Source: an archaeon
GTDB lineage: Archaea; B1Sed10-29; JAJRYS01
Direction: 5' to 3'
Length of the DNA stretch: 64,000 nt
Assembly: GCA_024275665.1 (NCBI GenBank)
Contig: JAJRYS010000016.1
Span: forward strand, 3,050-67,049
Made by a program: the position numbers and the translations under genes. The number at the start of each line of letters is the position of its first letter. Position 1 is the first letter of the stretch. The notes under the pieces are model-generated. The model did not search any database. It was not told where the DNA came from and worked only from the letters and a program-made list of their open reading frames with translations. Below are positions 6,362 to 62,249 of the stretch, piece after piece.

Positions 6362-7048
6362 GTGTTGGTTTTGAAAGTAGTTATCTCGCTTGGAGGGAGT
6401 CTTGTTTTTAGGAAAGAAGGAATAGCAGTTGATTATTTGAAAAGGTTTTCTGAGATGATTACTTCTTTTGAAAACGCAAGCATTGCTCTGACAGTTGGAG
6501 GAGGTAGAATTGCACGTGAATATGTGGAGAAAGGAAGAATGCTGGGAGCTAATAACTTCGAGCTTGATGAGATTTCAATACAACTAGTCAAAGCCAACTC
6601 TCGTTTGGTTTGCTCTGCTATCCCTCCTGCTGTTTTCTTCGAAGACTTTGAAGAAGCTGCGAGAATGTTCTCAAAACAACCAAGCATAATAGTGCTTGGG
6701 GTGGGTACTCCTGGACAGACAAGCGACTCCACGAGCGCGTTGTTCGCAGAAGAAACAGAAGCAGACAGATGGGTTAATCTGACTAACGTTGACGGAGTTT
6801 ATGACAAAGACCCTAAGAAGTACGATGATGCCGTGAAGTTCAGTGAAATGACCCACGCAGAACTACTTGAACTTGTTGAAAAATATGACAAGAGAAAATC
6901 AGGAGAGAACTTCGTCATCGACGTGCTTGCTGCTAAAGTCCTTGCGAGAAGCAACATAGAAGCGCATGTTGTCAACGGAGATGACTTGGAACAAGCGCAC
7001 AAAGCAATCCTAGGGCTGAAGCATAATGGAACTGTTGTAAAGGATTAA
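6362..7048 (+). CDS. pyrH: Uridylate (UMP) kinase, archaeal type
   Basis: Amino-acid kinase fold, ISLGGSLV...TVGGG nucleotide-binding motifs, about 228 aa as in archaeal PyrH. Confidence 0.8.
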   Translation: MLVLKVVISLGGSLVFRKEGIAVDYLKRFSEMITSFENASIALTVGGGRIAREYVEKGRMLGANNFELDEISIQLVKANSRLVCSAIPPAVFFEDFEEAARMFSKQPSIIVLGVGTPGQTSDSTSALFAEETEADRWVNLTNVDGVYDKDPKKYDDAVKFSEMTHAELLELVEKYDKRKSGENFVIDVLAAKVLARSNIEAHVVNGDDLEQAHKAILGLKHNGTVVKD

Positions 7049-7062
7049 GGGGGGTTGGTATT

Positions 7063-7176
7063 GTGGGAGAAGATGGTTTCAAAGAAGCATTGGAAAAGGC
7101 AAAAGAACATGCTGACGGTAATTTCAAAGAAGCTATTGAAAAAGCAGAGTCTTTGCTTTCAGGAGACGAAGACTAA
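7063..7176 (+). CDS. Small acidic helical ORF (37 aa, GTG start); function unknown
   Basis: Protein-like reading (VGEDGFKEALEKAKEHADGNFKEAIEKAESLLSGDED) in a different frame from pyrH; below the track cut-off. Confidence 0.2.
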   Translation: MGEDGFKEALEKAKEHADGNFKEAIEKAESLLSGDED

Positions 7177-7210
7177 CTTTTAAAAACCTGTCTTGTTTTA
7201 TTAGAAAAGC

Positions 7211-7402
7211 ATGGGGTACGGCAGTTTTGACACAGCAATAGCAAGAAGCAAACTTTATTACGCTGAGAAATACGGCAAGGCAACAATGGAGGACTTGAGG
7301 GCTTTCCAGGAAATCCTTGGAGCTGAAATAGTAATGGCGAAAGACGGCTCAGCAGCAACCATTCACTGCAAAGGTCAGTCAATAAGCGTTAGAGTGGTGT
7401 GA
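7211..7402 (+). CDS. Hypothetical small protein (63 aa)
   Basis: ORF with balanced composition; no recognisable motif. Confidence 0.25.
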   Translation: MGYGSFDTAIARSKLYYAEKYGKATMEDLRAFQEILGAEIVMAKDGSAATIHCKGQSISVRVV

Positions 7403-7406
7403 GCTC

Positions 7407-8310
7407 GTGGCACTTTCAAATTTTCAATTAGTAGATATTTTTAATGATGAGTTAATTGAGACCAGAGTTAATAATGAATACTTGGATGAAAGGTTAAATG
7501 AAGGAATAAAAAATAAGAAAATTTCAGGAGAACAGTGGTTTAGAAATCCTCAAGATTGGTACTCGATAACAGCTTACGCCAATCCTTACAAGACTCCTTT
7601 TTCAGAGCTTAAGATTTTGTTAAAAGAACAAGAAAATCTCAAACCATTGTTAAAAAACACTCTGAAAATATTTTATGGAGTTGGTATAGGTGAGACAGAA
7701 ACAGTTCCTGTTGAATGGGATTTACAGGATAATAAGTACTCTGAAGTGATTGGAATAGATATCATTGAATTTTTTCATAAAAGGTTTTATTTACGGATTA
7801 AGAAATTTAGCTCAGGAATACCCTGATAGTAAGATTATGTTTAAAGGGATCAATGGTTTGTTTGAGGATTTAACAAGGGAAAATATTTTTCCTTCTAATT
7901 CTAAGTATGAAAAGTCTTCTCACATTTGCTTTGGCAATACTGTTGGTAATTTTGATCAAGAAGAAATATTTGGGATTTTTAATGATAATATGTTAAAGGG
8001 GGATTTGTTACTACTTGGAATACAACTTGCTTTTGATCCTGATAGAGTACTAAGACAATATGAGAGTAATAAAAGATTTGAAAAATTGCTGGTAAACTCT
8101 ATTAGTAAAAAACTGGAAATAAAGAAGATTGATTGGAAGTGGAACTCTGAGGAAGGTCAGATAGAAGCATGGGCTGGGGATATTTTAGTGTTTAGATCAA
8201 AAAAATATGATGAGGAAGAATTTGAAAATTTTGTAGAAAAACACTCATTTTTAATAGTGAAAAAATTTGTTGAAAGAGATGTTGCATTATACGTTATGAA
8301 AAAAGAGTAA
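7407..8310 (+). pseudogene. EgtD-like (Methyltransf_33) SAM-dependent methyltransferase, disrupted by a frameshift in a T6 run near 7775-7785
   Basis: Two overlapping ORFs in frames 0 and +1 join into VIGIDIIEFF|IKGFIYGLRNLAQEYP...; C-terminal GNTVGNF...DLLLLGIQLAFDPDRVL matches the EgtD motif LGSTIGNF...LLLGxD; region GC about 30%, against about 40% for its neighbours. Confidence 0.5.
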
Positions 8311-8314
8311 AGTA

Positions 8315-9229
8315 TTAATATGGTTTCTTCACTTCAACAAACTCATTAGGCAGTAGTATTGGCTTTTCGTAATTCTTCCAGTCGTCCAAGACTATTCGTG
8401 GGCAGGCAGTGATTACGAAAGCGTCGAAAGGAAGGTAGTCGATTCGTTCAGGAGTGATTTCGTTCATTATTACCAAGTAAGTGTTTTCATGTTCTTTGCA
8501 TAGCTTTTCAGCGAGTTGTAGTTGCTGTTGGCCTGGCTTCGTGCTTGCGATTACTCCGAACGTCTTAGCCTTGCTTGCTTTACTTATCCTAAGCCATTTT
8601 TCTTTCTCCCATTCCCCAGCGCTTACTTCTGTCACTTCCTCGTTGTACGGGTTTGCTTGGATTATTTTTTTCTTAGTAGTATAAGCTACCAGTAGTGGGT
8701 GGAATTTTCCAGAACCTATGAACAAAAAACAATCAACGTCGTTGGCAATGCTTGCAGCGCTTCCAGCATCACATCCCAGCACTTGCCCGTCGTACGTTGC
8801 TTTGTTCCCTTTTCTTCCTATTACTGCTCTCTTACCTTTGTTTTCTAGGAATTTTTTCACTTCATCAAGCTTGTGAATGTGCTGCACTGTGGTGACTAAT
8901 CCTACTTTTTCACAGAGAAAGTTAAGCGCTTTTTCAACTACTGTGATCACTTCCAAATCTGACCTTGTTTCTGCGTATATTACGTTCTTGTTTTCAAGCA
9001 TTTTTGAATGCCCGTAGTGCACTGTTAGGAACCCTGGGATTGTTTGAATGTCGCATGCTCCGTAACAAGGGTCTCCTGACAATGCTATTTCAGCATTTGT
9101 TTTTTCCTTTAACTCTTTCATGAGTTTTTCAGCGTACTGTTTTAAGCCTTCTGGAAGCTGAAGCAGGACTTTGCTTGCTTTTCTCTTCTTGATTTCTCCT
9201 ATTATCCTTTTTGTTTCAAAATCATACAT
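8315..9229 (-). CDS. dph2: Diphthamide biosynthesis enzyme Dph2 (2-(3-amino-3-carboxypropyl)histidine synthase)
   Basis: Colinear with Pyrococcus Dph2: KVLLQLPEGLK, YGACD, QVLGCDAGSA, FIGSGKFHP and VITACPR cysteine-containing motifs. Confidence 0.8.
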   Translation of the reverse strand: MYDFETKRIIGEIKKRKASKVLLQLPEGLKQYAEKLMKELKEKTNAEIALSGDPCYGACDIQTIPGFLTVHYGHSKMLENKNVIYAETRSDLEVITVVEKALNFLCEKVGLVTTVQHIHKLDEVKKFLENKGKRAVIGRKGNKATYDGQVLGCDAGSAASIANDVDCFLFIGSGKFHPLLVAYTTKKKIIQANPYNEEVTEVSAGEWEKEKWLRISKASKAKTFGVIASTKPGQQQLQLAEKLCKEHENTYLVIMNEITPERIDYLPFDAFVITACPRIVLDDWKNYEKPILLPNEFVEVKKPY

Positions 9230-13803: not shown

Positions 13804-13921
13804 GGGCCAGTAGCTTAGTCACTACGCTGGACTTTCACTTACCCTCTTTCAGCGTAGCTAAAATGGTTGGAGCACCCGACTGATAATCGGGAGGCCGAGA
13901 GTTCAAATCTCTCCTGGCCCA
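13804..13921 (+). tRNA. tRNA-Ile (anticodon GAU) with a roughly 40-nt intron at a non-canonical position in the D-arm
   Basis: Acceptor GGGCCAG/CTGGCCC plus discriminator A; intact anticodon arm CCCGA-CTGATAA-TCGGG; T-arm GAGAG-TTCAAAT-CTCTC; D-stem GCTT/GAGC interrupted by an insert that forms the helix CTACGCTG/CAGCGTAG; no encoded CCA. Confidence 0.6.
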
Positions 13922-20492: not shown

Positions 20493-21767
20493 TTATTTTT
20501 TATAAACCCATTTTTCAAGAGCTCTCCTAAGTTCTCTGTGGTCCACAGCGTATTTTTTTAAGCTGATTCCTTGCATTGTTGCTTCAAGAGCTTGCCTTGC
20601 TGCTACTGCTCCTTCTGTAGTCCCGTCAGGGTGTCCGTGGATTCCTCCTCCCATTTGTATTATAATGTCAGTGCCAAGAGTTTTTACAAGTTTTGGCACG
20701 TGTCCTGGGTGAAGTCCTCCAGAAGCCACTGGGAACACTGGTTTTATGTTCTCCCATTTCTCAGCAAGCTTGTGTTCTCCTGGTTTTATTATCATTTCTC
20801 TTATCTCTCTGTCAATGGTGGTGACTTCTTTTTTGCTTCCATGCATTTTACCGAAAATAGTTCCAATGTGTATCTGGTCAACTCCTATGAGTCTGGCGAA
20901 GTCAGCAATAGCAAGCATGCTAATGCCATGCTTCTTGTTTCTTGTCAGAGCAGCGTGCATTGCCCTATGCGCGTGGATTATCAGTCTTCCGCTGTTTTCC
21001 CTTAGAGTCTGCAAGGCAGACCATCCTGTAGTTATTATGTCAACCATCACGTACTTCCCGCCTTGCGAGCGCACGAAGTCAACGCGTTCAAGCATTTCAA
21101 TAGTTTCAGCAGTAACATTAGCCATGTAAGCTTTCCTTTCTCCTGTTTCTTCTTCTGCCTTGTCCCTTGCTTCAAGAGTCTTAATCACTCTTTCTTCGAA
21201 AGGATTGAACTTCTGGCTGGTGAGGTTTTCATCGTCTTTCACTATGTCACATCCTCCGATCCAAGCGTTGTAAGCTACTTGCGCGTGTTCTGAGGCATGA
21301 AGTCCTAGTTTTGGTTTTACAATAGTGCCAAGAAGAGGTCTTTTCTTAACACGCATTATTTTCCTGACTCCTTGAATGCCGTGTTTTGGTCCTTTGAAAC
21401 GCTTCAAAATGACTTTCGGAAAGTCGTTGTCAACAAGACGAAGGTTTTCAACTTCTTTCATTCCAAAAATATTGCCAGCTACTGAGCTCAAAATTTCAGG
21501 AACGTTGTCCATTTCGAACAACTCTGCTGGATAAGCTATTTTAACATAGTGGCCTTTTATGTCAAACACTTTGGCACTCATCTTCATTATTCTCTTTTTC
21601 ATCGTAGTGACTTCTGTCCAAGTACCAGTAGAGGATTCTGCAGCAACAGCTGCTGCTGCTTCTTTCATGCTGACTCCCTTAGCAGGTTCTACGTAGAACA
21701 AGCATATCATGTCATCTTTTCTTGGCTTGTAATTCAAGTCGATGTAATGCGCGTACGATTCCTTCAC
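20493..21767 (-). CDS. rbcL: Ribulose-1,5-bisphosphate carboxylase/oxygenase large subunit, archaeal form III
   Basis: GGCDIVKDDENL (carbamylated Lys motif), GLHASEHAQ, HAHRAMHA, GGGIHGHPDG; about 424 aa, typical of form III. Confidence 0.9.
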   Translation of the reverse strand: MKESYAHYIDLNYKPRKDDMICLFYVEPAKGVSMKEAAAAVAAESSTGTWTEVTTMKKRIMKMSAKVFDIKGHYVKIAYPAELFEMDNVPEILSSVAGNIFGMKEVENLRLVDNDFPKVILKRFKGPKHGIQGVRKIMRVKKRPLLGTIVKPKLGLHASEHAQVAYNAWIGGCDIVKDDENLTSQKFNPFEERVIKTLEARDKAEEETGERKAYMANVTAETIEMLERVDFVRSQGGKYVMVDIITTGWSALQTLRENSGRLIIHAHRAMHAALTRNKKHGISMLAIADFARLIGVDQIHIGTIFGKMHGSKKEVTTIDREIREMIIKPGEHKLAEKWENIKPVFPVASGGLHPGHVPKLVKTLGTDIIIQMGGGIHGHPDGTTEGAVAARQALEATMQGISLKKYAVDHRELRRALEKWVYKK

Positions 21768-23750: not shown

Positions 23751-24243
23751 GAAAATAGCAGAAGCAGCATTGTTCATGTCGCCAGAGCCTCTTACTGTTA
23801 ATGAAATAGTGAAAGTGACAGGAGTTGAGTCTGTACCAGTTGCTTTAAAATTAATAGAAGATTTAGTGAAAGAGTTCAACTCTAGAGATTCTGCTCTTGA
23901 AATAGTAAATGATAACGGGAAATATTTGATGAGAGTCAAGTAAGAGTACTTGAAGCACGTGTCGCACTTAGCAGTTTCCCCTGAATTCTCAAAAGCAGTA
24001 CTAAGAACGCTTGGATTGATTGCTTTGAAACAGCCGGTAAAGCAGTCAATAATAGTAAGCATAGTAGGCAACAAGGCATATGATTACGTGAACGAGCTTG
24101 TTTCAAAAGGATTTATCAAAGCGAAAAAACAGGGCAACACCAAGATATTAATGACCACTCCTAAGTTTGAGTCTTACTTCGGGAAGAAAACAAACGAGAT
24201 AAAGAAAATGAGCAAAGCTTCTTACCAAAGTACTTTACTTTGA
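23731..24243 (+). pseudogene. scpB: Segregation and condensation protein B (ScpB) interrupted by an in-frame TAA at 23941-23943
   Basis: Two same-frame ORFs (70 aa and 97 aa) correspond to ScpB winged-helix 1 (AEAALFMSPEPLTVNEI) and winged-helix 2 (LSPEFSKAVLRTLGLIALKQPVKQS...KILMTTPKF). Confidence 0.55.
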
Positions 24244-25425
24244 GTTATAATATTCTGTGATTACTTCTAACACGTCTTTGAAGCTAACCACTCCATTGGA
24301 AAGCATTTCTTCTAGAATGTTTTGTTTTTTCTTAATCTCCTTGTTAATGTCAGCCCTGCTCTTGCCGCATAGTTTTGCAAGTTCTTCAATCTTGCCGCTT
24401 GGGATGTTCGTGCTTTCCACTTTGTCAGTCTTGGCATTGTAAACAAACAACTCGCTGAAAGAAATACCAATCTCAGAACGTTGCACTTCAACTATTGAAC
24501 TCACTCTTCTTTTCAATCCTTCAGGAGACCTGATTTTTTTGCATACTATTATGAAATCCATTAAGCCAAGCATGTTCTTAGGAACGTTCATAGGAGGATT
24601 AGTCAAACGGGAAATGCACTCAGCAGGAGAATTAGCGTGAAGAGTTCCCATGGCAGAGTGCCCTACGTTCATGGCGTTGAACAAAGTCTCTGCTTCCGGC
24701 CCTCTCACCTCTCCTACTATTAGCCTGTCAGGTCTCATTCTCAAAGCATTAATGAGCAAGTCATTCATAGTAATGGCACGTGTGTTAGCAACAGCGTGCT
24801 TGCTTTCCATCCTCACGACGTTCTTTCTTCCGAAGAAATTCAATTCAAGAGTGTCTTCTATTACTACTATGCGCTCGTCTTTTGGGATGAAAGAAGTAAG
24901 AATGTTCAATAATGTCGTCTTACCAGCTCCTGCTCCTCCAATAACCAGAATGTTGAAAGGATAATTCCTCTCTCCTTCCACTGCTTCCCATAAGAAAGCA
25001 GCAGCCTCTGAAGACAATGTGCTGTTCTGAATGAGACTAACGATTGACAACGGGTTCTGCTTGAACTTCCTAATAGTAATAGTAGGACTGTTAGGAGTAG
25101 CAGGAGGAATAGTAGCGTTCAAACGAGAGCCGTCAGGCAAGCGAGCATCAAGGAAAGGCTTTTCCTCATTAATCACGTCACCTGCTTCCAAGGCAGCGTT
25201 GTTAATCCATTCTATTATCTCTCTTTCACTCATCACAAGGTTAGTTTCGCACATGCCATGCTTAGCATGATAAACAAATACAGGTTCTCCTGCTCTGTTA
25301 ACCATTATTTCTTCAAGCTCAGGGTCTTTCAAAAACTTTTCAATAGAAGGGTTCTTAACCTCATACTTGTAAAACCCTCTCTTCTTAGTAATCGTTGCCA
25401 TGCCTTTCATTACAATCCAATCCAA
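24235..25425 (-). CDS. VirB11/TadA/GspE-family secretion ATPase (type IV pilus or archaellum-type, short form)
   Basis: Walker A VIGGAGAGKTTLLN, Asp-box and His-box of secretion NTPases, about 396 aa. Confidence 0.7.
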   Translation of the reverse strand: MDWIVMKGMATITKKRGFYKYEVKNPSIEKFLKDPELEEIMVNRAGEPVFVYHAKHGMCETNLVMSEREIIEWINNAALEAGDVINEEKPFLDARLPDGSRLNATIPPATPNSPTITIRKFKQNPLSIVSLIQNSTLSSEAAAFLWEAVEGERNYPFNILVIGGAGAGKTTLLNILTSFIPKDERIVVIEDTLELNFFGRKNVVRMESKHAVANTRAITMNDLLINALRMRPDRLIVGEVRGPEAETLFNAMNVGHSAMGTLHANSPAECISRLTNPPMNVPKNMLGLMDFIIVCKKIRSPEGLKRRVSSIVEVQRSEIGISFSELFVYNAKTDKVESTNIPSGKIEELAKLCGKSRADINKEIKKKQNILEEMLSNGVVSFKDVLEVITEYYNSK

Positions 25426-25499
25426 TAAAAAGCTTTTGCAGGACTAATTGCTGAGTTTAAAGTTTTAAATATGTTGCAGGGTATAAGAAATTGATTGAA

Positions 25500-27305
25500 A
25501 TGGTTCGCAAGCCTAAGCATATTAGAATAAGTAGAGAATGGATGGAGTTACAAGCTCTTAGAGAAAGAGAGAAAGAAGAGGAGAATAAGAAAAAGATTCA
25601 AAGAGCATTGCAAGCTATTAAAAAAGCAAAAGAAATTGAGAAGCAATATTACAAGAAAAGAGGGATGGAAGAAATTGAAAAACTTCCAAGAGCGTTGCGC
25701 AGCGGCAGGAATTTGAAAAAAGTCCTTGAGCAGAAAGCAGAGCAACTGCTTGAGGAAGCCAGACGCAAGGAAGAAATGCTTGGGAAAGGAGCTTCTTTTG
25801 TTAATGCTTTCTTCGAGCCAAAAGGACCGATAGAAGTGCAAATTGGAAGACTGAAAAGGTTGAATGAAATTCTTGACAATGCTCTTAAAGAAGAAAGAGT
25901 AATGAAACAAGAGAGGAGGTTGGTTGAAAAGCACAGGAAGAAATCTTTGAGAATGATAAGTGGACTTGAAAAAGAGAATGAGAAATATTTTAAGATAATG
26001 CCAGAATTAAAAGAAAAAGTAGAAGAATTGAATAGGAAAGTGCTTACAGGAGAGATGAATCCAAGGAAAGTTGAGAAAGAACTTGAAGAAATTAGAAGGC
26101 TTCAAGAAGAAGCAAAAGAAAAAGCAGAACTAATTTTGGAAATTGATAAAAGAATTGTGAAAGCAGGAGGAGTTGGGATAAGACCCCCTGCAATAATAGG
26201 CAACAAAGATCTCACCAGACTGAATTTAGAAGAACTTAGAGGTTTGTTAGAATCTGCTGACAAGAAGATTAGGGAAAAACAGCTTGAAAAGCAACGCAAA
26301 GAAGAGGAAAGAGAGGAAAGAAGAAAACTAGCTAACAAGTTTAGAAAGTTGAAGGGGGATTATGAAAAGATCACTGGTAAAGAACCAGGCATAAGGATAA
26401 TAAGAGGGATTAGTTTAAAGGAATACAAGAGGATAGTTGAAGAGTTTGAAGCAAGAGTGGAAAAGGAAAAAGAGCTAGCTGAAGCGAGGAAAGCAAGAGA
26501 GGAGAAAATAAGGAAAATCAAAAAATTAAATGAAGAAATCAAGAAGTATGGAGGAGAGCAGTTAAAAATCACAATTCCCTCTGAGAAACTCTCACTCAAT
26601 GCTTTGGAACAAATAGAAGGAACAGCAAGGGAAAGATTGGAAGAAGCTAAAAAGATGAAAGAGAAAGAGGAAGAGATACAAAAAATAAAAGAAACTTTTG
26701 AAGAGATTAGAAAAATCGACGAGCACTTCAGAATAGGAAATCTCTTTGATGCTTCAAAACCTCTTTCAGAACAGTTGGAAATGCTAAGAAAAAAGAGAAA
26801 AGAACTGGAAGAAGAACTTAAAATACTGAAAAAAGAAAAAAGAGAAGAAATCAAGATGCTTATAAATGAAGGAAAAGTCCCGGAAATAAATGATACAGAG
26901 AGGAGTGCCAGGAGATTAGAAAAAGAGTTGTACCTTCCTGAAGAATTTTCTTTACCTGAAAACAAGAAAATGGAGAGAAGCAGGATTGAAGAAGAAGCAA
27001 TAGAAGAAAAACCAAAGGAAATTAAAAAAACAAAACAGGAAGAAAAATTAGAAATATTCAAGGCAGAGCATTCTCAAATAATAGGTGACTTGTTGTTCGG
27101 AGGAGGGAGGCTCTTTCAGGAGTTTGAAGAAATAGAAAATAGAGTAGCGAGAGGAGATATCTCTCCTAAAGAACTTGAAAAAAGATTAAAAGAATGGCTT
27201 AATAAAGTTGAAAAAAGAAAGAAGGGGAATAAGAAAAAATCAAAGAAAAAGAAATCTGGGAAGAAAGGGAAAAGAAAATCTTCAGGGAGAAAAAAGAGTT
27301 CCTAA
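25500..27305 (+). CDS. Very Lys/Glu-rich predicted coiled-coil protein (about 600 aa) with a poly-Lys C-terminal tail
   Basis: Uninterrupted 1.8-kb purine-rich ORF with heptad-like EEL/KKL periodicity; C-terminal KKGNKKKSKKKKSGKKGKRKSSGRKKSS; TATA-like TTTTAAATA about 30 nt upstream of the ATG at 25500. Confidence 0.5.
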   Translation: MVRKPKHIRISREWMELQALREREKEEENKKKIQRALQAIKKAKEIEKQYYKKRGMEEIEKLPRALRSGRNLKKVLEQKAEQLLEEARRKEEMLGKGASFVNAFFEPKGPIEVQIGRLKRLNEILDNALKEERVMKQERRLVEKHRKKSLRMISGLEKENEKYFKIMPELKEKVEELNRKVLTGEMNPRKVEKELEEIRRLQEEAKEKAELILEIDKRIVKAGGVGIRPPAIIGNKDLTRLNLEELRGLLESADKKIREKQLEKQRKEEEREERRKLANKFRKLKGDYEKITGKEPGIRIIRGISLKEYKRIVEEFEARVEKEKELAEARKAREEKIRKIKKLNEEIKKYGGEQLKITIPSEKLSLNALEQIEGTARERLEEAKKMKEKEEEIQKIKETFEEIRKIDEHFRIGNLFDASKPLSEQLEMLRKKRKELEEELKILKKEKREEIKMLINEGKVPEINDTERSARRLEKELYLPEEFSLPENKKMERSRIEEEAIEEKPKEIKKTKQEEKLEIFKAEHSQIIGDLLFGGGRLFQEFEEIENRVARGDISPKELEKRLKEWLNKVEKRKKGNKKKSKKKKSGKKGKRKSSGRKKSS

Positions 27306-27346
27306 GGTTTTTAAACAAAAAACTTCATATTTAATGTAACTGTATA

Positions 27347-28696
27347 ATGATAACGGCGGTGATTGTGGTGGGAGTGAGGGATTATCTTAAGAAGAAAAAA
27401 AAGTTGAAAAGAGAGACAGTAGGGATTGGTAAGATTTCTGCTGTTGGTATGAGAATGTCCAAACTTAAAGCATTAAAAACAGCAAAAGAGTTGGGCATTG
27501 ACATAAGCAAATATGGCAGGTTTGCTACTGTTACTGATATTAAAAAAGATATAACTTCTAAGATTAGAGAAAATGAGAAGAAAGTGCAAGAAGGTAAAAT
27601 GAGGAAAGCAAGAAAAATTGCTAGGGAAATGAAAGAAGAAGAGGAGTTGTTTGAAAAAATTGTGCAAAAGGCTGTTAAAGAAGGAGAAGAGAAAGTAAAA
27701 AGAAAGTATGGTGAAAGGGAAAGAGAGATAATAAGAGAAAAAGAAGAGATGGCTAAAGAATTTGAGAAAATAAAAGCAAAAGCCAAGAATGGTAAAAAAC
27801 TCACTAGGGAAGAACTTAACTTCTTCAGGAAGTATTATTCAAGAATGGCTGGAACTCCTTCTGAAAAGAAATCATTAGAAAGGAGAGTTAAGAACATAGA
27901 AAAAAGGATTAATAAGCTTATTAGTGAGGAAAAGAATAAAGGAGTTAAAGGAGATATATTTGCCCAACTCTTAAAACAAGGCAAGATAAGCGAAGAGGAA
28001 ATCAACCTGCTCAATGAGTACTATCAACAAGCTGGAGGAGCTAAGTTCATAACAAGAGTAAATGTTGCTCCTGAGTTGAAGGATATGATTTATAGTGGAA
28101 AAGCCGCGAAGATTACTGGAAGAGTACCAGAAGTTAACATTGAGGACTTTGAAATAAGAAAAGGAGAGAGAATAATATTCCATCCAATGCAACAGCCAAT
28201 GATGGCTAAATTAAAAAACCTTGTAGAGAAAAGAGACTCTCTTAAAGAAAGAAAACAAGCTCTGAAGGAGCAGATTAAGAAGTTAGAAGAGTTTGGAAGA
28301 TACTCTGACCTTGAAATTGCGAAAAAGAAATTAGATGAAGTTGAAGCAAGAATAGATGAAATGAAAGAAGAAATAAAATATTATCATAAATTAGCAGAGG
28401 AGGAAGAGAAAGAGTTTGAAAGAAGAAAAAAAGAGGAATTAAGAAAAGAAAAAGAAAAGCTTAAGAAAGAACGTGAGAAAGAGCTTCAGAGACAGGCAAT
28501 GCTTAGAAAGAAACAACAGATAAAGGAGACTAATGAAAAAATTAAGAAAATAAAGGAAGAGTTGAAAGTTCTCAGAAGCCCTAGAAAGAGAATTGAAATG
28601 AGGATCAAGGAAGGAGATATAAATCAGAGAATAAGAGAACTTGAGAATAAACTCAGAGAAGAGAAGAAGATATTAGAAGAATTACAAAAAGCATAA
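27347..28696 (+). CDS. Lys/Glu-rich predicted coiled-coil protein (449 aa)
   Basis: Long uninterrupted ORF with a short N-terminal hydrophobic segment (ITAVIVVGV) then charged helical repeats. Confidence 0.5.
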   Translation: MITAVIVVGVRDYLKKKKKLKRETVGIGKISAVGMRMSKLKALKTAKELGIDISKYGRFATVTDIKKDITSKIRENEKKVQEGKMRKARKIAREMKEEEELFEKIVQKAVKEGEEKVKRKYGEREREIIREKEEMAKEFEKIKAKAKNGKKLTREELNFFRKYYSRMAGTPSEKKSLERRVKNIEKRINKLISEEKNKGVKGDIFAQLLKQGKISEEEINLLNEYYQQAGGAKFITRVNVAPELKDMIYSGKAAKITGRVPEVNIEDFEIRKGERIIFHPMQQPMMAKLKNLVEKRDSLKERKQALKEQIKKLEEFGRYSDLEIAKKKLDEVEARIDEMKEEIKYYHKLAEEEEKEFERRKKEELRKEKEKLKKEREKELQRQAMLRKKQQIKETNEKIKKIKEELKVLRSPRKRIEMRIKEGDINQRIRELENKLREEKKILEELQKA

Positions 28697-60672: not shown

Positions 60673-61260
60673 CTATTTAATTATTTTTAAACTCTTTGCT
60701 GTTTTATCAATTACTTTTTCTTCTACAACGTACCAGTATACTACAAGACCAATAGAAGAGCCTATCAGTACATCTGACAAGTAATGAAGTTGTAAGTAAA
60801 CCCTTGAAAAACTAACTAGCAAAGCTGTTGTGAAGAAAACCAATGGTTTTGAATAGTAATATTCCAGAGTGCTCATTAATGAGAAAGCGAAGGCAGCGTG
60901 GCCAGAAGGAAAGGAAGATAAAAACTTTTCAGTGCCAAAGCCAGTTACCCCTCCATCAGGTCTGTTTCTATTAACAACCAGTTTTATCACAAACACTACT
61001 ATTATGTTTATTATTATTACAAGAATCATTCTCCAAGCTATTTCTTTTTTCCTTTTCTTTTCAAACATTAACACCAGTAAAACCAATAAAGGCAATCCTG
61101 TTGTCATGCTTCCAATATTAGTGATTGCTATCATTGCAATATCAAGCAAAGGATTTCTAAAAGAGCTCATTAAAACGCTTACTTGTTTGTCTATTGCAAG
61201 AGAAGCTATTCCAGCAAGTAAGAACAACCATGCTGCTGCGAGTAAAATCTTCTTATTCAT
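60673..61260 (-). CDS. PAP2-family (type 2 phosphatidic acid phosphatase) membrane protein
   Basis: KxxxxxxRP-like (NRNRPDGG), PSGH (SFPSGHAAFAF) and SRxxxxxHxxxD-like (YLQLHYLSD) motifs. Confidence 0.7.
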   Translation of the reverse strand: MNKKILLAAAWLFLLAGIASLAIDKQVSVLMSSFRNPLLDIAMIAITNIGSMTTGLPLLVLLVLMFEKKRKKEIAWRMILVIIINIIVVFVIKLVVNRNRPDGGVTGFGTEKFLSSFPSGHAAFAFSLMSTLEYYYSKPLVFFTTALLVSFSRVYLQLHYLSDVLIGSSIGLVVYWYVVEEKVIDKTAKSLKIIK

Positions 61261-62249
61261 ACTCTCATCTCTTCGTTCATTTTAGTAAGATTTTTCACAC
61301 TCTTGTTTATAACCAGAGTGTTTTCAAGCCTGAATCCTCCGATATTTTGAACATGTAACCCTGGTTCTAATGCTATTACCATGTTGTTTTTGAATGTTTG
61401 TTTTGATTTCAAACTTATGACTGGTTCTTCGTGAACTCTTAAACCAATGCCATGTCCTAACGAGTACTTCCAATACTGTAACACTCCTTTTTCTTTAAAG
61501 AAGCTTTGTACTGCAATCACTGCTTCGTTGCACTTTTTTCCAGGTTTTATTTTTCCTAATGCTATCTTGTATGCTTTTTTTATTATCTCCCATTTTTCTT
61601 CTTTCTCTTTTGAAGGATTGATGCAAAAAGTTCTCGTCATATCAGAGCAATAGTTGTTGACTACGAAACCTAAATCAACTATTATTGTTTCGTCTTCTTT
61701 TATTTTTTTGTCAGTTGGTTTGGAATGAATTCTTAAACTGTTCTTTCCAGAAGAGATTATGAAGTTGAAAGCAATCCCTTCACTTTCTGTTATTGATTCG
61801 CATAACGCTGTTTTATATATTTCTTTTTCAGTAACCCCTTTTTTTATGCTCTCTTTTACTGCTTTCATTGCTCTTACTGATAACCTGCTTGCTTTTTCAA
61901 TGCATTTAATCTCTTTTTTTGTCTTAATGCTTCTTATTTTATCTACTTTATCCTCAGCGTCGTACAATCTTACTTTCTTGCTTAGTGTTGAAAACATTTT
62001 GAAAGGCATTGAATCAACACAAGCAAATGCTTTCTTGATGCGTAATTTTTTAAATAGTTCAAACAAGTCCTTATAATAATCCTTGCTCTCGATTATCACT
62101 GCATTTGCTTTTACATAAGAATCAGCTGTTATCAAATACTTCTTATTCTTAGTGATTAACAAGAAGCCAGAAGTATCAGCATTTGAAAAATACTCTACGT
62201 CCTCTTCTCTATGTAATAGTAAAGGAAGGAGTTTTTCTAATTTTCTCAT
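61257..62249 (-). CDS. M24-family metallopeptidase (Xaa-Pro aminopeptidase/prolidase-like)
   Basis: Pita-bread fold motifs: metal-binding D/D, HGIGLRVHEEP, E...E. Confidence 0.7.
   Translation of the reverse strand: MRKLEKLLPLLLHREEDVEYFSNADTSGFLLITKNKKYLITADSYVKANAVIIESKDYYKDLFELFKKLRIKKAFACVDSMPFKMFSTLSKKVRLYDAEDKVDKIRSIKTKKEIKCIEKASRLSVRAMKAVKESIKKGVTEKEIYKTALCESITESEGIAFNFIISSGKNSLRIHSKPTDKKIKEDETIIVDLGFVVNNYCSDMTRTFCINPSKEKEEKWEIIKKAYKIALGKIKPGKKCNEAVIAVQSFFKEKGVLQYWKYSLGHGIGLRVHEEPVISLKSKQTFKNNMVIALEPGLHVQNIGGFRLENTLVINKSVKNLTKMNEEMRV

Follow-up and report, generated by a model that had tools for sequence, protein, structure and literature searches.

What is a gene resembling that of an ergothioneine enzyme doing, in two pieces, between housekeeping genes of an archaeon? 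This is the question raised by positions 7407-8310 of a 64,000-nucleotide stretch of contig JAJRYS010000016.1 from an archaeon of the B1Sed10-29 lineage; this whole 64-kb stretch is referred to below as the window. A sequence-only reading of the locus had described it as an AT-rich island, probably acquired horizontally, that encodes an EgtD-like methyltransferase of the histidine-betaine type and is split by a single-base frameshift in a T run. Our analysis bears out the island, the family, the split and the horizontal acquisition, but not the proposed function in hercynine or ergothioneine synthesis. At a probability of roughly 70%, the locus is a horizontally acquired accessory gene for an EgtD-fold, S-adenosylmethionine (SAM)-dependent alpha-N-methyltransferase that is not a histidine methyltransferase and is interrupted by one T.

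One methyltransferase in two reading frames

As sequenced, the gene is represented by two open reading frames (ORFs) that overlap by 62 nt and are offset by one frame (Table 1). Past codon 123, ORF 1 runs in the wrong frame up to its stop. Deletion of one T from the T6 homopolymer yields a single ORF of 300 amino acids (aa), and this run is the sole place where a one-base indel reconciles both frames. With most of 23 intact homologues (~290-310 aa) the corrected protein can be aligned over 96-98% of its length, and the best of them are 57-60% identical to it. The junction created by the correction, EFFIKGF, fits the family consensus xxFIEGF, in which F123 is invariant, and in its wider context (...GIDIIEF-FIKGFIYGLRNL) it agrees with the consensus ID(V/A)IxxFI(E/K)GF.

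A Pfam search places the corrected protein in Methyltransf_33 (PF10017, 44.1 bits versus a cut-off of 23, E = 1.8e-11), and the C-terminal ORF passes the same cut-off by itself (37.9 bits). Since matches to homologues reach E = 1e-112 in addition, a chance match to the family would not be plausible. HMMER aligned the segments GNTVGNF, LLLLG... and Y, which had been recognised earlier as EgtD hallmarks, with GSTIGN, LLLGTD and AY of EgtD, and the SAM motifs are present as well (GxGxG at 91-95, D118 and F152). An AlphaFold2 model built from the family alignment (pLDDT 91, pTM 0.91) was compared with the PDB using Foldseek. All 15 best matches were EgtD (TM 0.69-0.75, with 0.73-0.75 for the top ones; 16-19% identity; E ~1e-13), whereas the non-EgtD matches were generic class I methyltransferases with a TM of at most 0.55. 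Taking the profile searches and the predicted model together, we regard as established that the protein belongs to Methyltransf_33 and has the EgtD fold, that is, a Rossmann methyltransferase with a substrate-binding domain. A literature search turned up no paper on the subfamily or on 'Methyltransf_33'.

At these codons the intact homologues L001, L003 and L005 carry five Ts (GTTTTTAT), and the lesion would thus be the addition of one T within an ancestral T5 homopolymer. The copy as sequenced cannot make the enzyme, since the extra T interrupts the gene. All 51 columns whose conservation in the family reaches at least 87% are retained in the corrected copy. Any decay would therefore have to be recent, the lesion being either very new or not real.

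We lean towards a real, recent inactivating mutation, because the assembly is otherwise clean and the gene is an accessory import without its usual regulator (described below), of which no HTH_10 homologue was found in the window by tblastn. The window is 94% coding, and among its 84 ORFs no other same-strand overlap exceeds 47 nt. When these ORFs were taken as a gauge of assembly error, no further split gene was found, despite 199 homopolymer runs (A/T of at least 6 nt, G/C of at least 5 nt), 39 of which are A/T runs of 7-8 nt. An error-prone assembly would be expected to show more frameshifts, preferentially in the longer runs, and genes such as this one, accessory insertions without their usual regulatory partner, are easily lost. 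Sequencing or assembly may nevertheless have introduced an error in the homopolymer, with the gene intact in the organism, and we place this serious contender only somewhat behind a real mutation. It concerns the frameshift only and is compatible with everything else that we propose, and it would account for a single-base lesion in a homopolymer unaccompanied by any other, for the retention of all 51 conserved positions, and for the existence of a homologue in another metagenome-assembled genome (MAG) with a similarly isolated frameshift.

The latter homologue (L014, 7959-9033; Chloroflexia MAG MFD02416.bin.1.78) is interrupted near nt 8296-8300, around codon 100, which is a different site from that in the window. 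Judging by the MFD isolate label, we suspect that its split is a long-read assembly error.

Programmed frameshifting, either by ribosomal +1 slippage on TTT-TTT-C or by transcriptional slippage, would yield the full-length enzyme from the sequence as it stands. After a +1 slip within TTTTTT, perfect re-pairing of tRNA-Phe would be possible, and the 0-frame stays open for only 17 codons past the T run. However, neither a stop nor an obviously slow codon follows the slip site, and six Ts make a short run for transcriptional slippage. Furthermore, none of ~40 homologue loci is frameshifted at the T-run site, the junction being in a single frame. Because the shift site is conserved in none of these homologues, we rejected programmed frameshifting, which we consider very improbable.

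The active site compared with EgtD

EgtD (M. smegmatis and M. tuberculosis; PDB 4pim, 4pio, 4uy6 and 7scf), an L-histidine N-alpha-methyltransferase, and EanA, which is its counterpart in anaerobes, share with the corrected protein the two-domain fold, the Pfam family, the SAM motifs, the GxTxGN amine anchor and the carboxylate anchors. For a residue-level comparison the M. smegmatis EgtD sequence, confirmed against PDB 4pim, was aligned to the family profile with hhalign in local and global mode, and conservation was counted over 35 subfamily members. Gly161 and Asn166 of EgtD hold the alpha-amine and govern sequential methylation (PMC9103826, PMC8593015), while Tyr206 and Ser284 bind the carboxylate (PMC8593015). 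All four are kept: G176 and N181 correspond to the amine anchors in both the HMMER and hhalign alignments, Y218 corresponds to Tyr206, and S264 corresponds to Ser284 in the global alignment. These residues are conserved in 32-35 of the 35 members. Of the four EgtD residues that hold the amino-acid backbone, three are thus retained (Asn166, Tyr206 and Ser284), with the Tyr56 position being variable.

The residues around the substrate side chain are replaced throughout the subfamily. Met252 corresponds directly in hhalign to A254 (Ala in 32 of 35 members), and Glu282 would correspond to F262 (Phe in 33 of 35), an equivalence that we infer from the predicted beta strand shared by F262 and S264, in which F262 comes two positions ahead of S264. 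A deletion removes four residues around Thr213, the residue that in EgtD positions a water in contact with the imidazole (PMC8593015). A 22-residue hairpin (EgtD ~254-280) is absent, the Tyr39 position is occupied by Lys or Gly, and the N-terminal lid carries a 5-aa insertion. With 16-19% identity to EgtD, the protein also stays below the cut-off of the EgtD equivalog model (TIGR03438, 39.9 versus 290.9 bits). Taken together, it resembles EgtD but is probably not EgtD proper.

A genuine EgtD or EanA, making hercynine for ergothioneine, would agree with the Methyltransf_33 match, with EgtD being the best structural match, with the retention of most amino-acid anchors, and with the name 'L-histidine N(alpha)-methyltransferase' that NCBI gives to two homologues; EgtD and EanA homologues are known from archaea (PMC7278568, PMC9103826). 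What speaks against it, besides the equivalog score, is that Glu282, Met252 and the Thr213 loop have been exchanged or lost across the subfamily, and that EgtD with substitutions at two of these sites (M252V/E282A) has been crystallised in complex with tryptophan (PDB 4pip). Neither is an ergothioneine partner that would form the C-S bond present in the window or recurrent near ~40 homologues. Among the 51 window ORFs scanned there is no rhodanese, EgtB, EanB, OvoA, EgtC or EgtE gene, and within 4 kb of the methyltransferase in the ~36 distinct homologue loci that we examined, the recurring neighbours include no EgtB, EanB, OvoA-like, rhodanese or sulfoxide-synthase gene, whereas eanA normally adjoins eanB (PMC9103826). 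We consider it quite unlikely that the protein is a histidine N-alpha-methyltransferase, and these results do not support the histidine-betaine function suggested for it earlier.

The tryptophan-bound structure of the M252V/E282A variant implies, by analogy, that positions 252 and 282 are those that set side-chain specificity. Small or hydrophobic residues like those engineered at these two positions occur naturally in the subfamily (A254 and F262). The subfamily differs from the variant in having Phe rather than Ala at the Glu282 position, and in its loop deletions, and tryptophan is one candidate substrate among others. Natural aromatic amino-acid betaine synthases were reportedly described within EgtD's family by Vit et al. 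in 2015. The fungal EasF/FgaMT enzymes (TIGR03439; dimethylallyltryptophan N-methyltransferases of ergot alkaloid synthesis) belong to the same Pfam family and match the same core weakly, with 32 bits over residues 140-234 against a cut-off of 205.55. These enzymes belong to fungal secondary metabolism, and there are no prenyltransferase or alkaloid genes near the methyltransferase of the window.

We propose that SAM would bind in the Rossmann half (GxGxG 91-95, D118 and F152) and that a free alpha-amino acid would be gripped, as in EgtD, by its carboxylate (Y218 and S264) and its alpha-amine (N181 and the backbone of G176), with the amine presumably receiving one to three methyl groups. The side-chain pocket is predicted to be hydrophobic and enlarged, with F262 and A254 at the positions of Glu282 and Met252, respectively, and the Thr213 loop gone. 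Since such a pocket would be hydrophobic and larger than that of EgtD, histidine is an unlikely substrate, and the residue pattern points to a hydrophobic or aromatic amino acid as the most likely one.

A single-gene insertion next to dph2

The methyltransferase gene has a GC content of 29.9%, compared to 38.5% in the remaining window, and constitutes the GC minimum among all 904-bp segments of the 64 kb (mean 0.383, standard deviation 0.026; ~3 standard deviations below the mean). The flanks have 42% (7001-7400) and 45% (8401-8800). Its GC contents at second and third codon positions, both 0.246, are the lowest among 65 window genes (z = -2.2 and -2.3, respectively), and its codon usage is the fourth most atypical in the same set.

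The composition break coincides with a break in synteny. The closest Dph2 proteins are 61% identical to that of the window, with named relatives from Micrarchaeota and Diapherotrites at 53-58%, and the contigs carrying these closest dph2 genes (L019 and L020) were used for comparison. L020 keeps all 11 flanking genes in the same order at 42-76% identity (TruD, aRF1, PyrH, 63-aa, Dph2, 98-aa, 121-aa, KaiC-like, RMMBL, 400-aa and TrmB), the 63-aa protein being 67% identical. L019 keeps 6 of the 11 (51-61% identity), with the TrmB/400-aa pair inverted relative to the window. On both contigs the 63-aa gene and dph2 lie tail to tail with overlapping stops, and no methyltransferase was found on either (tblastn E>3). 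Relative to them, the window contains an insertion that is exactly the gap between the 63-aa gene and dph2, namely the methyltransferase gene with 4 nt on each side.

The gene's GC content is that of its nearest homologues (27-30%, in hosts with 29-35%), and in Dehalococcoidia and Chloroflexia the methyltransferase lies 10 GC points below its host. Together with the patchy distribution of the subfamily and the two syntenic relatives in which the gene is lacking and the flanks abut, these observations argue for horizontal gain of the methyltransferase as a lineage-specific insertion, in line with what had been suggested from composition. No convincing direct or inverted repeats were found at the insertion borders and no tRNA gene beside them, the 51 window ORFs scanned against Pfam include no integrase, and no relative of the methyltransferase was found in IMG/VR viral contigs. 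Tyrosine recombinases lie within 4 kb of the methyltransferase in three other loci, and these look Xer-type.

The position of the gene raises the possibility that the enzyme works with the adjacent Dph2, for example by replacing Dph5 in trimethylating the diphthamide precursor on EF2. The methyltransferase ends 4 nt from the dph2 stop codon, no Dph5 (TP_methylase) is present among the 51 window ORFs scanned against Pfam, and the diphthamide and EgtD-type reactions both exhaustively methylate an alpha-amino group whose carbon bears a carboxyl. But the two genes are convergent and so not co-transcribed, both syntenic relatives have dph2 without the methyltransferase, dph2 is a neighbour at none of ~40 homologue loci, and the conserved carboxylate and amine anchors suit a free amino acid. 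Given the convergent arrangement, the syntenic relatives and the absence of dph2 from the other neighbourhoods, we rejected this link, which has hardly any credibility left; dph2 is functionally unlinked to the methyltransferase.

Upstream of the 63-aa gene, a small ORF (VGEDGFKEALEKAKEHADGNFKEAIEKAESLLSGDED; 7063-7175, +) lies between it and pyrH and has a 45-nt direct repeat within it (7077-7101 and 7122-7146, 84% identical). The same interval holds an acetyltransferase gene in L020 and a P-type ATPase gene in L019. With contents that differ between the window and the two relatives, this interval is a hot spot for gene turnover.

Table 1. Coordinates of the split methyltransferase gene and its surroundings in the window, and of recurring partner genes at homologue loci
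Feature	Sequence	Position	Strand	Remarks
EgtD-fold (Methyltransf_33) methyltransferase gene	window	7407-8310	+	300 aa after removal of one T; split into two ORFs as sequenced
ORF 1, 139 aa	window	7407-7826	+	N-terminal lid (GEQWFR, NPY), SAM motif I, ribose-binding acid D118
SAM motif I, G91-x-G93-x-G95	window	7677-7691	+	ORF 1
D118	window	7758-7760	+	ORF 1
T6 homopolymer	window	7770-7775	+	within GAATTTTTTCAT
ORF 2, 181 aa	window	7765-8310	+	mechanical TTG start; C-terminal two thirds of methyltransferase
G176-N-T-V-G-N181	window	7933-7950	+	ORF 2
Y218	window	8059-8061	+	ORF 2
A254	window	8167-8169	+	ORF 2
F262	window	8191-8193	+	ORF 2
S264	window	8197-8199	+	ORF 2
K266	window	8203-8205	+	ORF 2
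Insertion, 912 bp	window	7403-8314		relative to syntenic contigs L019 and L020; borders coincide with GC drop
Conserved 63-aa gene, function not known	window	7211-7402	+	left border; stop 4 nt before methyltransferase GTG start
dph2 (diphthamide synthesis)	window	8315-9229	-	PF01866, 244.5 bits; convergent; right border
HTH_10 regulator	L001	7226-7888		
HTH_10 regulator	L003	7281-7949		
HTH_10 regulator	L013	1332-1997		
HTH_10 regulator	L022	2140-2796		
HTH_10 regulator	L032	348-995		
HTH_10 regulator	L038	942-1583		
HTH_10 regulator	L039	5228-5878		
HTH_10 regulator	L008	7233-7898	-	
Liv-type operon	L050	3067-11529		
Liv-type operon	L045	3667-10491		
Liv-type operon	L047	128-6794		
Liv-type operon	L051	56-3946		

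The subfamily, its neighbourhoods and the remaining window

Searching 1.84 billion representative proteins with a subfamily profile retrieved 79 clusters at E<=1e-30 and only 415 at E<=1e-3, which places the subfamily, by sequence, as a small clade of ~80-100 clusters, well separated from mainstream EgtD. The hosts are DPANN archaea (Aenigmarchaeota, Diapherotrites, Woesearchaeota and 'Nanobdellati') and a few Chloroflexota MAGs. The earlier remark that such a methyltransferase is unexpected for an archaeon of this kind holds only in part, the subfamily being centred on DPANN archaea. The gene is intact in essentially all of the ~36 loci examined, the exceptions being the frameshifted L014 and fragments at contig ends.

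The contig of P0001, which is among the closest homologues of the methyltransferase (57% identity), carries a gene for a protein with EFP_N and Elong-fact-P_C domains (L018/L021, 1950-2519, -). This bacterial-type EF-P architecture suggests that even the nearest relatives of the methyltransferase cross the boundary between archaea and bacteria.

The most frequent partner of the methyltransferase is a regulator of 215-222 aa with an HTH_10 domain, encoded immediately upstream in 11 of the ~36 loci and divergently in one of these 11. Its N-terminal domain (~130 aa) has no Pfam match, was modelled as a tandem ferredoxin/ACT-like fold, and forms a single protein with the methyltransferase in three clusters (P0028, P0045 and P0394). 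One member, P0021, has an N-terminal HTH_17 fusion, and an Lrp/AsnC-like neighbour with borderline Pfam scores is present in three loci. In four loci, those of the most distant members, the gene is surrounded by a Liv-type branched-chain amino-acid ABC transporter operon (Peripla_BP_6, two BPD_transp_2 permeases and two ATPases), and in L050 the methyltransferase stop lies 3 nt ahead of the first permease gene. The remaining neighbours differ between genomes, and such variable surroundings fit an accessory, mobile gene. The neighbourhoods are consistent with amino-acid chemistry under ligand-responsive control, and none points to ergothioneine.

This HTH_10 regulator of ~220 aa, which begins with MWxxKxRxKHDCxIGxRCKKF, is DPANN-wide, and its family, with at least 146 matches, is much commoner than the methyltransferase.

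Several points weigh against the reading of the gene as a horizontally acquired methyltransferase of a substrate other than histidine. The identification of the substrate class is drawn solely from residue substitutions and neighbouring genes. Within it, the equivalence of Glu282 and F262 relies on sequence and secondary-structure alignment, and the variable residue at the Tyr56 position (Y, F, H or L) means that carboxylate binding may differ from that in EgtD. The members with the Liv operon branch off farthest within the subfamily (30-34% identity). The search for an ergothioneine partner in the host was limited to the 64-kb window, and a partner elsewhere in the genome is conceivable. With regard to acquisition, loss in both syntenic relatives stands formally as an alternative to gain here. 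In addition, in most low-GC hosts the methyltransferase lies 2-5 GC points under the host flanks, which makes part of the GC dip a property of the gene itself.

On a more tentative level than the non-histidine methyltransferase itself, and with the odds somewhat against it, the subfamily could represent a previously undescribed class of amino-acid alpha-N-methyltransferases, perhaps of betaine synthases, which would act on a non-histidine, probably hydrophobic or aromatic substrate under ACT-like HTH_10 or Lrp-type amino-acid sensors and be coupled to Liv transport in some bacteria. If this is true, DPANN archaea, whose biosynthetic repertoire is very limited, would synthesise or modify a methylated amino acid, such as an osmolyte or a compound exchanged with a host, and the gene for doing so would be spreading among them by horizontal transfer. 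The public name 'L-histidine N(alpha)-methyltransferase', which wrongly implies ergothioneine or hercynine synthesis in DPANN archaea, is a likely over-annotation that our results correct. The pocket signature, with N181, Y218 and S264 kept and A254 and F262 changed, defines a compact set of clusters and, together with the recurring partners (HTH_10, the N-domain fusions and the Liv transporter), makes the substrate question directly testable. The locus itself is a clean case of a single gene inserted between abutting housekeeping genes and apparently caught soon after its inactivation. It bears on gene flux in reduced archaeal genomes and is a modest curiosity with no evidence for an ergothioneine pathway.

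As judged by the Pfam scan of 51 ORFs, the window otherwise has the character of an ordinary DPANN-type housekeeping region, with genes for TruD, aRF1, PyrH, Dph2, MetRS, a thermosome, a ValRS-type synthetase, ProRS, exosome, proteasome and CTP synthase. It also contains a RuBisCO large-subunit gene at 20493-21767 (-), with a RuBisCO_large match of 313 bits plus the N-terminal domain. Form III RuBisCO is typical of the DPANN nucleotide-salvage pathway, and by analogy we presume this form here on the strength of the DPANN host. An Rfam tRNA match at 13854-13914 (+; 46.7 bits) covers model positions 7-64 only, and ARAGORN found no tRNA in the 64 kb; the match may represent an atypical, intron-containing or truncated tRNA gene.

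Two further stretches of the window have a low GC content. The second lowest (~31.5-33%), at 25491-28696 (+), contains ORFs of 604 and 449 aa without a Pfam match and lies downstream of a gene for a T2SSE/FlaI-type ATPase (24235-25425, -); it may be another lineage-specific or imported block. The third (~32%), at 61251-61551, is located at the junction of the genes for a PAP2 phosphatase (60673-61260) and an M24 peptidase (61257-62249).

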